Virus record (IMG/VR): IMGVR_UViG_2675903278_000002
Length of the DNA stretch: 64,000 bases
Origin: a virus
Lineage: Duplodnaviria; Heunggongvirae; Uroviricota; Caudoviricetes
Reading direction: 5' to 3' (one strand)
Position 1 is the first letter of the stretch. Each line of letters begins with the position of its first letter. The position numbers and the translations under genes are program-made. Of the stretch, positions 11,792 to 25,055 are shown one piece after another. The notes under the pieces are model-generated. The model was not told the origin of the DNA. It made no database searches and saw nothing but the letters and a program-made list of their open reading frames with translations.

Positions 11792-12286
11792 ATGGCACGT
11801 CAAACCTATTTCACTTCTGCAACTAAACGTCCTCGTTCACTACGTCAAATTTTGGCCGAATTATTTAGCGGTCGTGTTCTGTCACGTCTTGATGAACTAG
11901 AGACTGCCGTTCGGTTGCTGAATGAACGTTTAGATAAGCAAGCGTCAGTTGTTGCGAACGTGGGGGCGATTGTTACCTCTGGTTCTTCACGCGAAGCGAA
12001 AAGTACACGGCCTTTAGTGAAGGAGAAAAACAACAAGGACAGTTCGAATGGAAAATTTTCAAAGAAAGAGGCTGAAACCAATGGCCTACGTTCTCATTAT
12101 AGTTTCACTGGCGACGATAGCCGTTCCAGCCGGCCAGAGCCTTTTGATGCCGGGTTCATCCATCACCACACCTCCGTCGACGACAATTACCACCACTCCA
12201 GTAGAGCGTCCTGTCACTCTGGATGGGATGACGGTGGATGCGATACCTCAAGTTCATCCAGTTACTCAGGATCATGCTGTGACTAA
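11792..12286 (+). CDS. hypothetical protein (Ser/Asp-rich C-terminus)
   Basis: 164 aa ORF; no recognisable domain. Confidence 0.6.
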   Translation: MARQTYFTSATKRPRSLRQILAELFSGRVLSRLDELETAVRLLNERLDKQASVVANVGAIVTSGSSREAKSTRPLVKEKNNKDSSNGKFSKKEAETNGLRSHYSFTGDDSRSSRPEPFDAGFIHHHTSVDDNYHHSSRASCHSGWDDGGCDTSSSSSYSGSCCD

Positions 12287-12295
12287 GGCGGTTGT

Positions 12296-12484
12296 ATGAA
12301 CTGGTTTTCAAATCACTTTGGAAAAATTTGGCTGGCAATTCTTGCCCTCATGGCCGCCGGTTGGGTATCGAACATTATAAAACTTGTTTGCTCTGGCGAT
12401 CTCCAGTTTCAGGCTGGTATGACCTTGGCTCGTGTTGTTGGGATTTTTGTTTTTCCAGTTGGTTCGGTACTTGGTTATTTCTGA
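12296..12484 (+). CDS. small hydrophobic protein, putative membrane protein
   Basis: 62 aa; two hydrophobic stretches (LAILALMAAGWV, VVGIFVFPVGSVLGYF). Confidence 0.45.
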   Translation: MNWFSNHFGKIWLAILALMAAGWVSNIIKLVCSGDLQFQAGMTLARVVGIFVFPVGSVLGYF

Positions 12485-12538
12485 CGGCTGTTAGTGCATA
12501 TGCATTGACCATCTCTGCGTAAGCAATTTATGTAATTA

Positions 12539-12554
12539 GAAAACAACTTGTTTT
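12539..12554 (+). promoter_or_regulatory. class-A palindromic promoter/operator-like motif (GAAAACAAnnTGTTT)
   Basis: GAAAACAACTTGTTTT ~25 nt upstream of RBS GGAAAACACATG of the TerB-like gene; recurs before many small genes. Confidence 0.6.
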
Positions 12555-12577
12555 GACAAATAATAAAAGGAAAACAC

Positions 12578-13003
12578 ATGTTAGGTTTCTTCAAAAAGAA
12601 AACTCGTAAAGCTGTTATCGAAGTCAAAAAAATGGAGAACCGTGATGCGGTTGAGGCCACCGTGTGGGGCGCGTACATGATCTCCTATGCCGACGGCACA
12701 TGTGACGCAAAAGAAATTGCCATTCTTGAGAAGACAATTGCAGCTCTGCCTGCGTTTTCTCCGTTTGCTGGTGAAATTGCCCAAATGAGCGCCAATATCC
12801 GTGCTCGTTACGAAGCGTCCCCTCGTTCTGCTAATGCACAGGCTATTCGTGAGCTGTCTGATATTGCGGGTACTCCAGAGGCGGTCGATGTTCTGTGTCT
12901 GTGCCTTGATATTGCCGACCAAGACGGTATTGGCGAACAAGAAGAGCTGGCCCTGAAAAAGATCGCACAGGCGCTTCAGTTGTCACTGGATGCTTATCTC
13001 TAA
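12578..13003 (+). CDS. TerB-like (tellurite-resistance TerB domain) protein
   Basis: 141 aa; two helical halves each with acidic DG...EE pattern (ISYADGTCDAKEIAILE; DIADQDGIGEQEELALKKIA) resembling TerB; motif-level only. Confidence 0.6.
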   Translation: MLGFFKKKTRKAVIEVKKMENRDAVEATVWGAYMISYADGTCDAKEIAILEKTIAALPAFSPFAGEIAQMSANIRARYEASPRSANAQAIRELSDIAGTPEAVDVLCLCLDIADQDGIGEQEELALKKIAQALQLSLDAYL

Positions 13004-13161
13004 TGCTTGAGAGATTCCGGCTTGTGACCGTCATTGCTCTTCTGGTGATGGCGGTGTTGGTGGATTTTACGGGAAAGATGATGTCTGTCATTTCTGATGG
13101 CGTCCTCATTGGTCTGGCGATCTACTTCGCTTATCCGCTAGTCCGTAAAGCAACGTGTTAA
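13003..13161 (+). CDS. small hydrophobic protein (52 aa)
   Basis: ATG overlaps stop of the TerB-like gene (TAATG); predicted product MLERFRLVTVIALLVMAVLV..., below track cutoff; terminator follows. Confidence 0.4.
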   Translation: MLERFRLVTVIALLVMAVLVDFTGKMMSVISDGVLIGLAIYFAYPLVRKATC

Positions 13162-13163
13162 TG

Positions 13164-13191
13164 ACAAGGGCCAAATGGCCCTTGTGTTTCG
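13164..13191 (+). terminator. rho-independent terminator
   Basis: ACAAGGGCC-AAAT-GGCCCTTGT hairpin followed by GTTTCG. Confidence 0.65.
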
Positions 13192-22560: not shown

Positions 22561-24594
22561 ATGACCCAAGTCGCGAAGAAAATTCTGGTGACGTGCGCGC
22601 TGCCGTACGCTAACGGCTCAATCCACCTCGGCCATATGCTGGAGCACATCCAGGCTGATGTCTGGGTTCGTTACCAGCGAATGCGCGGCCACGAGGTTAA
22701 TTTCATCTGTGCCGACGATGCCCACGGTACGCCGATCATGCTGAAAGCACAGCAGCTTGGTATCACACCGGAGCAGATGATTGGCGAAATGAGTCAGGAA
22801 CACCAGACTGATTTCGCAGGCTTTAACATCAGCTATGACAACTATCACTCGACGCACAGCGAAGAGAACCGTCAGTTGTCTGAGCTTATCTATACTCGCC
22901 TGAAAGAGAACGGTTTTATTAAAAACCGCACTATCTCTCAGTTGTACGACCCGGAAAAAGGCATGTTCCTGCCGGATCGTTTTGTAAAAGGCACCTGCCC
23001 GAAATGTAAAGCGCCAGATCAATACGGCGATAACTGTGAAGTCTGCGGCGCAACATATAGCCCGACTGAATTGATCGAGCCGAAATCGGTGGTTTCTGGC
23101 GCTACCCCGGTAATGCGTGATTCCGAACACTTCTTCTTTGATCTGCCTTCTTTCAGCGAAATGTTGCAGGCATGGACCCGCAGCGGCGCGTTGCAGGAGC
23201 AGGTGGCGAACAAAATGCAGGAATGGTTTGAATCCGGCCTGCAACAGTGGGATATCTCCCGAGATGCGCCTTACTTCGGTTTTGAAATTCCGAACGCGCC
23301 GGGCAAATATTTCTACGTCTGGCTGGACGCGCCGATTGGCTACATGGGTTCCTTCAAGAATCTGTGCGACAAGCGCGGCGATACCACCAGCTTCGATGAA
23401 TACTGGAAGAAAGACTCCACCGCCGAGCTGTACCACTTCATCGGTAAAGATATTGTTTACTTCCACAGCCTGTTCTGGCCTGCCATGCTGGAAGGCAGCA
23501 ACTTCCGCAAGCCGACCAACCTGTTTGTTCACGGCTATGTGACGGTGAACGGCGCGAAGATGTCCAAGTCTCGCGGCACCTTTATTAAAGCCAGCACCTG
23601 GCTGAATCATTTTGACGCCGACAGCCTGCGTTACTACTACACTGCGAAACTCTCTTCGCGCATTGATGATATCGATCTCAACCTGGAGGATTTCGTTCAG
23701 CGCGTGAATGCCGATATCGTGAACAAAGTGGTTAACCTGGCCTCCCGTAATGCAGGCTTTATCAACAAGCGTTTTGACGGCGTGCTGGCAAGCGAACTGG
23801 CTGACCCGCAACTGTACAAAACCTTTACTGATGCCGCTGAAGTGATTGGCGAAGCATGGGAAAGCCGCGAATTTGGTAAAGCTATCCGTGAAATCATGGC
23901 ATTGGCTGACCTGGCTAACCGCTATGTCGATGAACAGGCTCCGTGGGTGGTGGCGAAGCAGGAAGGACGCGATGCCGATCTGCAGGCGATTTGCTCTATG
24001 GGCATTAACCTGTTCCGCGTGCTGATGACGTACCTGAAGCCGGTACTGCCGAAACTGACTGAACGTGCAGAAGCATTCCTGAATACAGAACTGACCTGGG
24101 ATGGTATCCAGCAACCGCTGCTGGGCCATAAAGTAAATCCGTTCAAGGCACTGTATAACCGCATCGATATGAAGCAGGTTGAAGCACTGGTGGAAGCATC
24201 CAAAGAAGAAGTGAAAGCCACAGCCGCACCGGTAACTGGCCCACTGGCTGACGACCCGATTCAGGAAACTATCACCTTTGACGACTTCGCCAAAGTTGAC
24301 CTGCGCGTGGCGCTGATTGAAAACGCAGAGTTTGTAGAAGGTTCTGACAAACTGCTTCGCCTGACGCTGGATCTCGGTGGTGAAAAGCGTAATGTCTTCT
24401 CAGGCATCCGTTCCGCTTATCCAGATCCACAGGCACTGATTGGTCGTCACACCATTATGGTGGCTAACCTGGCACCACGTAAAATGCGCTTCGGTATCTC
24501 TGAAGGCATGGTGATGGCTGCTGGCCCCGGCGGGAAAGATATCTTCCTGTTAAGCCCGGATGCTGGTGCTAAACCTGGCCACCAGGTTAAGTAA
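22561..24594 (+). CDS. metG: methionyl-tRNA synthetase (host-type)
   Basis: Starts [31 protein letters not shown]..., KMSKS present, ends ...GAKPGHQVK; essentially the E. coli MetG sequence; track ORF 22432 begins upstream in frame, ATG 22561 is the conserved start. Confidence 0.96.
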
Positions 24595-24612
24595 TTAAAC
24601 AACCTCTCTTCG

Positions 24613-24641
24613 CAATGCCCGGCAACACGCCGGGCATTTTC
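24613..24641 (+). terminator. rho-independent terminator (metG)
   Basis: GCCCGGC-AACAC-GCCGGGC hairpin followed by ATTTT right after metG stop. Confidence 0.85.
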
Positions 24642-24677
24642 ATATAGACACAATCCCTTCTGATTTACACAGTACCT

Positions 24678-24692
24678 AAAACAATTTGTTTT
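24678..24692 (+). promoter_or_regulatory. class-A palindromic motif (first of a tandem pair)
   Basis: AAAACAATTTGTTTT followed by CTGCC, same as motif at ~29301. Confidence 0.6.
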
Positions 24693-24727
24693 CTGCCTTT
24701 TGTTGATGGAGATAATAAACCACATAA

Positions 24728-24743
24728 GAAAACAACTTGTTTT
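24728..24743 (+). promoter_or_regulatory. class-A palindromic motif
   Basis: GAAAACAACTTGTTTT immediately upstream of RBS GGAGTGG and ATG 24756. Confidence 0.6.
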
Positions 24744-24755
24744 GGAGTGGTTGAA

Positions 24756-25055
24756 ATGTTGAACATTACCCAAGCCTACCAGGTGGCATTGATCAGCTCA
24801 TCTCATACATCAGAGGAAGATGCTCGCCGATTCATGATCGCAAGCAATGAGCTGGATTGGGTTTCACAAATTGAGTACGGTTGCATTGTCCACGCCGGGT
24901 TACAGGACGATGACTGGAAAGATGAGTTGCGTCGATATGGTATATCCGAGGGCGCGATTGCGAACATTCAGAAAGTACTTGATGTAGGCTTTGACTCTGT
25001 ACATTTTGATTGTGGTGCACCGGTCGTTGAAGGGCTAGAGTGCTGGCAATGGTAA
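24756..25055 (+). CDS. hypothetical small protein
   Basis: ~99 aa; ATG with GGAG upstream, in frame with track ORF 24747 (GTG). Confidence 0.6.
   Translation: MLNITQAYQVALISSSHTSEEDARRFMIASNELDWVSQIEYGCIVHAGLQDDDWKDELRRYGISEGAIANIQKVLDVGFDSVHFDCGAPVVEGLECWQW

Follow-up and report, generated by a model that had tools for sequence, protein, structure and literature searches.

The best-described relatives of the genes discussed here are tciA, tciB and tciC of phage P1, which lie on one strand between the C1-controlled Pban promoters and ban; statements on P1 gene order and naming rest on the GenBank record AF234172. A genome-wide CRISPRi study found all three P1 genes to be non-essential (PMC10695390). 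tciABC is dispensable for P1 plaque formation, and the cassette is accessory. TerB proteins are also encoded by the terZABCDE(F) clusters, and the structure of the Klebsiella protein has been solved by NMR (2JXU). An association of ter-cluster TerB with the inner membrane and with TerC has been reported, with mention of a TerC-TerB complex and of membrane attachment of TerB (PMC11003894, citing Turkovicova 2016; bioRxiv 10.1101/2022.05.11.491447, citing Alekhina 2011). TerB domains appear in several validated anti-phage systems; 'membrane surveillance' has been proposed for them in the defence literature (bioRxiv 10.1101/2022.05.11.491447). In Shango (SngA), Bunzi (BnzA) and Dionysus (DinB), a TerB domain occurs together with membrane-embedded components, as in the tci cassette; however, these systems are encoded by the host, comprise several genes and have effectors of the helicase/ATPase or pore-forming type. 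For the Ter genes of phages, superinfection competition was proposed in the jumbo-phage review of Iyer et al. Our search of the literature on TciA/TciB, DUF3927 and SSU5 superinfection retrieved no functional study. Imm and Sp of phage T4 are small, early inner-membrane proteins for superinfection exclusion, which are dispensable for plaques and protect the already infected cell. They have no sequence relationship to tciAB and no TerB partner, and the likeness is functional speculation.

The stretch of DNA analysed here (the window, 64,000 nucleotides) is part of an SSU5/Cyrano-like phage-plasmid of E. coli. A region of 1.7 kb is 98-99% identical to Escherichia phage-plasmids of about 105-125 kb, including Cyrano (pLF82; 98.4% nucleotide identity), a relative of the Salmonella phage SSU5 (PMC9928086). 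The three ORFs highlighted by a sequence-only reading of the window were confirmed at the same coordinates, all on the plus strand, and two of them are almost certainly the tciA-tciB pair of P1-type and SSU5-type phages. The locus has the following features:

12296..12484, plus strand: 62-aa ORF (phrog_6006), a neighbour with two hydrophobic segments, outside the tciAB module
12541..12553, no strand assigned: palindrome AAACAAcTTGTTT, 25 nt ahead of the tciA start codon; copy of a repeated element, putatively of promoter/operator type
12567..12571, plus strand: AAGGA, similar to a Shine-Dalgarno sequence, 6 nt ahead of the ATG of tciA, read from the sequence
12578..13003, plus strand: tciA, encoding a soluble TerB-family protein of 141 aa, basic in its N-terminal tail and acidic in its all-helical body
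13003..13161, plus strand: tciB, encoding a DUF3927 membrane peptide of 52 aa, its ATG overlapping the tciA TAA (TAATG)
13164..13185, plus strand: terminator-like hairpin with a 9-bp stem, ACAAGGGCC-AAAT-GGCCCTTGT, followed by a T-rich tail

In the Cyrano record, the two genes are labelled 'P1 TciA-like' and 'P1 TciB-like', and the product names among the E. coli records listed are 'tellurite/colicin resistance protein' and 'DUF3927 family protein' (PGAP). Of 5,426 complete E. coli genomes, 209 (about 4%) contain the core from palindrome to terminator at a nucleotide identity of at least 90%; 211 of the 213 core sites are plasmid-borne. tciA-tciB is an already known and routinely annotated gene pair with hundreds of records and, as a sequence feature, tciAB of the window is ordinary and without new architecture. 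Four points are added here: TerB and DUF3927 are coupled almost universally across temperate and virulent phages, TerC occurs as an alternative partner of TerB in one Vibrio phage, the 62-aa ORF does not belong to the tciAB module, and tciAB is linked to published data on its silence in a lysogen.

The pair resides in the RNase H, ThyX and DHFR region of the window and is surrounded by ORF164, the 62-aa ORF and ORF189. Pfam and PHROG annotation of ORF164, the 62-aa ORF, the DUF3927 gene and ORF189 revealed no Ter domains and no other ter genes, and no helicase, ATPase or pore-forming gene adjoins tciAB in the window. The three ORFs and the two larger genes beside them were also scanned with PADLOC and NCBIfam models, with no useful result; TciA, TciB and the 62-aa protein matched none of the PADLOC models at E<=1. 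Thus, in contrast to the ter clusters, the window has no other ter genes, and the partner of TerB is a 52-aa peptide rather than a TerC of about 340 aa. Unlike Shango, Bunzi and Dionysus, tciAB is phage-borne, has no effector gene, matches no PADLOC model and is silent in a lysogen. In comparison with P1, the products are accessory and unassigned in function in both elements, and TciA (79% identity over the full 141 aa), TciB (38% identity) and the overlap of stop and start codons are shared. The two differ in backbone, the window being an SSU5-like siphovirus phage-plasmid, and in upstream control, which is exerted in P1 by C1-controlled Pban with tRNA genes, whereas the window carries the palindrome element. 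They further differ in tciC, which is present in P1 and P7 only; a tciC-like third ORF was looked for after tciB of the window and is absent, and the hairpin follows directly.

Judged by sequence profiles, TciA is a true, full-length TerB homologue. The Pfam model TerB (PF05099) matches with 28.8 bits (gathering threshold 24.4, E=1.6e-6, profile positions 9-109 of 118), more distant members of the clade reach 41-64 bits, and the match to phrog_632 'tellurite resistance' has an E-value of 2e-62. A single-sequence phmmer search with TciA against the PDB found no TerB; a profile built from 64 family members, however, aligned with Klebsiella TerB (2JXU) at E=9.2e-26 (positions 9-142 on 15-149), covering 134 of 143 positions. 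TciA therefore resembles 2JXU over its full length, in size and in its all-helical structure, but the similarity is detectable by profile only. The sequence-only reading had proposed a TerB-domain protein to be verified by an HMM search, and these matches bear it out; no homologue with a different established function was encountered. Among 1.84 billion cluster representatives, all of which were searched, there are only 175 relatives at E<=1e-3, and these are mainly stand-alone proteins of 140-150 aa. The AF2 model of TciA (pLDDT 91.2, pTM 0.83) consists of six helices, and its fold matches TerB-like structures. Two acidic 'DG....E' motifs (D39-G40...E46 and G117...E122) are 88-98% conserved among the 64 family members. 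TciA has no hydrophobic segments; residues 1-18 (MLGFFKKKTRKAVIEVKK) carry a net charge of +6 and the remainder of the protein one of -11. The dN/dS of 0.024 in comparison with Klebsiella indicates that the protein is under strong purifying selection. Further acidic positions are also conserved in the TciA family.

TciB matches Pfam DUF3927 (PF13064) with 47.4 bits (threshold 25) and phrog_1470 'TciB-like' with 7.8e-21. In a set of 54 unique sequences, conservation reaches at least 90% at R6, D21-F22-T23, S28, D32-G33 and P45, and the D-F-T / S..S-D-G / P signature is common to TciB of the window and of P1. TciB diverges much faster than TciA: it is only 31-48% identical to the window protein where TciA is 84-88% identical, and its dN/dS in comparison with Klebsiella is 0.23. 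The two hydrophobic segments and the basic termini suggest that TciB may adopt an N-in/C-in hairpin topology, which would leave very little of the peptide facing the cytoplasm for TciA binding. An AF2 monomer model, obtained with nine near-identical rows, shows one continuous helix instead (residues 2-51, pTM 0.52).

The junction between the two genes reads ctcTAATGctt, with the ATG of tciB overlapping the TAA of tciA. An overlap of the tciB start with the TerB stop is found in 96 of 98 loci (TAATG or TGATG in 63, GTGA or ATGA in 33), although the 98 loci carry 54 distinct TciB sequences and are non-independent samples. The earlier suggestion that the downstream peptide is translationally coupled to TerB thus agrees both with this junction and with its conservation. 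A TciB homologue directly 3' of TciA was identified in 79 of 80 viral contigs, a set obtained with a single-protein query and skewed to close relatives (at least 84% identity), in all 11 genome loci of diverse Enterobacterales, and in P1 and Cyrano. More distant phages were examined individually. P7 (1e-25), Klebsiella pJN2-26 (4e-11) and the virulent N4-like Salmonella phage FSL SP-076 (6.6e-12) each carry a DUF3927 gene behind TerB, and the match in an Erwinia jumbo phage is weak (0.053) and below the threshold. The virulent Pseudomonas phage ZY21 also has DUF3927 after TerB; the annotated start of its DUF3927 gene is placed too far downstream, and the real ORF begins 3 nt past TerB. Every tblastn match of TciB in annotated phage records has TerB beside it. 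In one database protein, seen on a single contig, TerB is fused to DUF3927, apparently through the slip of one base where the two genes meet; this fusion may be a frameshift artefact. The pairing of TerB with a membrane partner is not universal, since PMBT3 has TerB without an adjoining small membrane protein. In the Vibrio phage vB_VpaP-MS02, a TerC-family gene (PF03741, 3.6e-41) is located directly upstream of a TciA-like TerB, which matches the TerB-TerC pairing of the ter operons.

The hosts of the cassette comprise P1-like, SSU5-like, lambdoid, N4-like and Pseudomonas phages, and its neighbours differ from element to element. Prophages of the lambdoid type carry it ahead of two holin genes, whereas it precedes a DnaB-like helicase gene in P1, P7 and a Pantoea element (ban in all three) and is located beside DNA methyltransferases in other elements. 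These differing neighbours show that TerB and DUF3927 behave as one cassette that moves between unrelated phage backbones. TerB homologues were found in 92 phage records, and TerB is encoded beside ThyX and MazG in PMBT3 and beside a dUTPase in FSL SP-076. It had been supposed that TerB is unusual in a nucleotide-metabolism module; as it recurs near replication and nucleotide genes, its setting in the window is a recurrent pattern and not an anomaly. A toxin-antitoxin or holin-like function of TciB was considered with regard to the adjoining holins of some prophages and was set aside, as the pair is also present in early regions and in virulent phages.

The two-gene unit is bounded by its own upstream palindrome and its downstream terminator-like hairpin, which directly follows tciB according to a consensus scan and the sequence and thereby closes the unit. 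The 14-mer AAAACAACTTGTTT has 26 strand-matches with at most two mismatches on both strands of the window, compared with 0.82 expected. There are 19 core sites, most of which lie 10-45 nt upstream of plus-strand ORF starts; roughly 14 distinct plus-strand sites occupy such a position. In the best copies, an extended -10 (TGnGATAAT) precedes the palindrome by about 12 nt, so that the palindrome would lie just past the likely transcription start. Copies of the palindrome precede many other transcription units of the element, including that of the next gene (13301), and the copy upstream of tciA is kept in Klebsiella pJN2-26. The palindrome is a putative regulatory element and presumably the site of a binding factor. 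A consensus scan and the sequence revealed no convincing -35/-10 for tciA itself.

Transcriptome data are available for the Cyrano lysogen of strain LF82 under five conditions, all uninduced. After overnight growth in LB, the tciA and tciB homologues CYRAN_85 and CYRAN_86 have log2(fpkm+5) values of 2.32/3.18 and 2.32/2.32, respectively, on a scale on which 2.32 equals zero reads; the putative repressor gene CYRAN_45 reaches 6.75/6.39 (PMC9928086 S1 Table). The values for CYRAN_85 and CYRAN_86 remain low throughout the five conditions; they increase slightly (to about 5.4-6.0) one hour into 'B1', as do those of their neighbours and of the repressor gene (PMC9928086). The lysogen expresses 13 Cyrano genes, which include neither of the two (PMC9928086 Table 1). 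Hence, tciAB is essentially silent in this near-identical lysogen, and any role is likelier to be exerted in lytic growth than as a standing function of the lysogen. In P1, the tci genes are placed downstream of Pban, and the module is also present in strictly virulent phages (Salmonella FSL SP-076 and Pseudomonas ZY21). Taken together, silence in the Cyrano lysogen, placement at Pban and virulent carriers lead us to infer that tciAB is probably expressed in the lytic phase, and they argue against a standing role in lysogenic conversion.

We narrowly favour a model in which TciA and TciB would form a membrane-tethered TerB complex that is made during lytic growth and shields the envelope. Coupled translation would ensure that both proteins are made together. 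TciB would reside in the inner membrane and tether TciA to its cytoplasmic face, and the basic N-terminal tail of TciA may help in membrane attachment; the tethered complex as such appears reasonably probable. TciA-TciB could then correspond, in minimal form, to the TerB-TerC pair of the ter operons, whose association has been reported in the sources cited above and which has its parallel in the Vibrio phage. Membrane-bound TerB might sense or buffer a membrane-associated signal in lytic growth via its two acidic 'DG....E' motifs, and the envelope of the infected cell would be protected against the entry of superinfecting phages, colicin-type pore formers or membrane-acting abortive-infection effectors. 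A role in exclusion or envelope protection is drawn from analogy and is proposed only tentatively. It is likewise rather doubtful, though conceivable, that tciAB is a self-contained, phage-borne minimal TerB-TerC module that is switched on in lytic growth and shields the inner membrane. With regard to the protective analogy, the phenotypes of ter operons need other ter genes. If a minimal TerB-TerC shield were correct, it would provide the first function for DUF3927 and for the most widespread phage TerB clade. It would also give a two-protein handle on the role of the TerB domain, the shield acting through superinfection or colicin exclusion or through neutralised membrane-acting abortive-infection effectors. 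tciAB is the simplest natural context of TerB, with one TerB protein and one 52-aa membrane peptide, and, being simple, strongly conserved and widely spread, it offers a convenient experimental entry point.

The sequence-only reading had raised the idea that a phage TerB could mimic or interfere with bacterial defence. In such a scenario, TerB would be a decoy or inhibitor of host immunity based on TerB or on membrane surveillance (the Ter cluster, Shango, Bunzi or Dionysus), and the presence of TerB domains in validated defence systems, the occurrence of the module in virulent phages and its silence in the lysogen would be compatible with it. The very strong purifying selection on TciA across backbones is also what is expected of a protein engaging a conserved host partner. 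However, neither TciA nor its neighbours match a PADLOC model, and the closest solved relative is the TerB of a ter operon and not that of a defence system. To our knowledge, a ter cluster is missing from most of the E. coli strains that carry these phage-plasmids, which also counts against it. The idea has gained no specific support and is considered unlikely.

A second explanation, to which we assign a slightly smaller chance, is that the unit of TerB and membrane peptide adjusts Mn, Ca or Zn for phage replication and nucleotide enzymes, as TerC-family proteins do. The recurrence of TerB beside replication and nucleotide genes (the window, P1, P7, Pantoea, PMBT3 and FSL SP-076), the TerC/Alx metal-homeostasis protein accompanying TerB in the Vibrio phage and the conserved acidic motifs of the TciA family would all fit. 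A peptide of 52 aa, however, is unlikely to be a transporter alone, and lambdoid prophages place the cassette before holins, so that the association with replication genes may be no more than a consequence of a location in early or moron regions.

It was also considered whether TciAB blocks septation during phage development, which would account for the 'i' in Tci as cell-division inhibition or takeover. In Y. pestis and E. coli, filamentation requires terZAB, which is also sufficient to cause it (PMC4633105), the possibility is named in the P1 record (AF234172), and an RNA-seq preprint on P1vir places tciA/B/C in one group with icd and kilA, which control division. The preprint, however, made this grouping by annotation and not by assay, terZ/terA account for filamentation and lethality no less than terB does (PMC4633105), and P1 already has Icd for septation control. 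Overall, such a role is improbable.

Constitutive expression of tciAB in the lysogen could make the host resistant to tellurite or colicins, or could provide it with a standing exclusion of phages. The database product name 'tellurite/colicin resistance protein' points in this direction, and the ter cluster does confer resistance to tellurite, phages and colicins (PMC11003894); however, tellurite resistance is not expected from terB alone, because terCDE is required (PMC4633105). Moreover, tciAB of the Cyrano lysogen is essentially untranscribed in LB and stays at a low level throughout the five conditions, it is not on the list of lysogen-expressed Cyrano genes, and virulent phages carry the module too. 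Lysogenic conversion is therefore disfavoured and regarded as very improbable.

The sequence-only reading had further described TerB as bracketed by two small membrane proteins. Both flanking proteins indeed have two hydrophobic segments; the bracketing does not hold as a single unit, though. The 62-aa ORF, which encodes a conserved protein and matches phrog_6006 with 2.1e-25, belongs to an upstream unit with ORF164 (11792-12286) and is coupled to the ORFs upstream of it, and it is separated from tciA by a spacer of 93 nt carrying a copy of the palindrome. Among the 80 viral contigs, it is present in 49, exactly those that also bear the backbone neighbours ORF164 and ORF189, and the other 31 keep tciAB and lack it. 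It is also absent from P1 and from all 11 bacterial genome loci (0/11), and it accompanies TerB on the SSU5-like backbone only. A membrane unit of three genes, in which the 62-aa protein would join TerB and its 52-aa partner and for which the adjacency of all three genes on one strand and the failure of a consensus scan to detect a terminator between the 62-aa ORF and tciA could be cited, was rejected as having hardly any probability, as every non-SSU5 locus that keeps tciAB lacks the 62-aa ORF, this ORF is coupled to its upstream genes instead and a separate palindrome element intervenes. All homologues of the 62-aa ORF are on contigs of about 106-113 kb, where the contig is long enough to judge. 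Klebsiella pJN2-26 has an unannotated homologue with 53% identity at the equivalent position.

The gene for ORF164 shares its 3' half with a second open reading frame, which extends into the start of the gene for the 62-aa membrane protein upstream of tciA.

11792-12286, + strand: ORF164, phrog_10411
12048-12299, + strand: 83-aa ORF, in a different frame from ORF164 and covering its 3' half

The N-terminal part of the ORF164 protein is coiled-coil-like, and its C-terminus is rich in serine and cysteine (...CHSGWDDGGCDTSSSSSYSGSCCD), a feature that is kept in the Klebsiella relatives. The sequence of the 83-aa ORF begins with MENFQRKRLKPMAYVLIIVSLATIAVPAGQS..., with a basic N-terminus followed by a hydrophobic stretch, and its end is joined to the start of the 62-aa ORF by an ATGA overlap. 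In all 51 SSU5-like loci examined, which fall into three divergence groups, this frame is open for 88 to 166 codons and is closed by the identical ATGA overlap. In the comparison with Klebsiella, amino acid identity is no lower in the frame of the 83-aa ORF (43/85) than in that of ORF164 (35/91). The ORF at 12048-12299 is a candidate overlapping gene.

Homologues of the small genes in this region are unannotated or annotated too short in the records of two other phages, and a Vibrio phage has a TerC-family gene next to its TerB gene.

L014 (locus of Klebsiella phage pJN2-26, MZ779062) 2210-2398: homologue of the 62-aa membrane protein, unannotated in the record
L099 (locus of Pseudomonas phage ZY21, OM140839) 986-1174: small gene 3' of TerB, encoding a DUF3927 protein
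L100 (locus of Vibrio phage vB_VpaP-MS02, OR102882) 75-1623: gene of a TerC-family membrane protein and TciA-like TerB gene

The pJN2-26 homologue is conserved, and its position matches that in the window. In ZY21, the annotated start of the small gene lies too far downstream, giving 39 aa; the full-length gene is a 62-aa ORF that begins 3 nt past the TerB stop. The TerC-family gene of vB_VpaP-MS02 immediately precedes that for the TciA-like TerB, and together they form a phage-borne TerC-TerB pair with a parallel in the ter operon. A fusion of P1-type TciA to TciB was found in a single database protein, P0104 (196 aa, one Logan contig); the junction between both parts is altered (...LEQLYLMVIKA...), and the fusion is probably not natural but due to an indel of one base or to misassembly.

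Many small + strand genes of the window are closely preceded by a palindrome.

2319, 12541, 13270, 24679, 24730, 26343, 27538, 27915, 28399, 29302, 30052, 30537, 39654, 39679, + strand: AAACAA-N-TTGTTT copies

At up to two mismatches, the 14-mer has 26 strand-matches in the window versus 0.82 expected, and the best copies carry an extended -10 (TGnGATAAT or TGnTATTAT) about 12 nt upstream. The palindrome looks like a putative operator or 5'-leader element common to early genes of the phage-plasmid. Going by the annotation of Cyrano, the phage-plasmid would also carry genes for a methionyl-tRNA synthetase, a MinD-like protein and a LexA-like S24 peptidase close to where the small genes with palindromes cluster.

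about 22990-25020 and neighbours: predicted position of these genes, from correspondence with Cyrano CYRAN_100

A MetRS-like peptide context is found at window position 23446.
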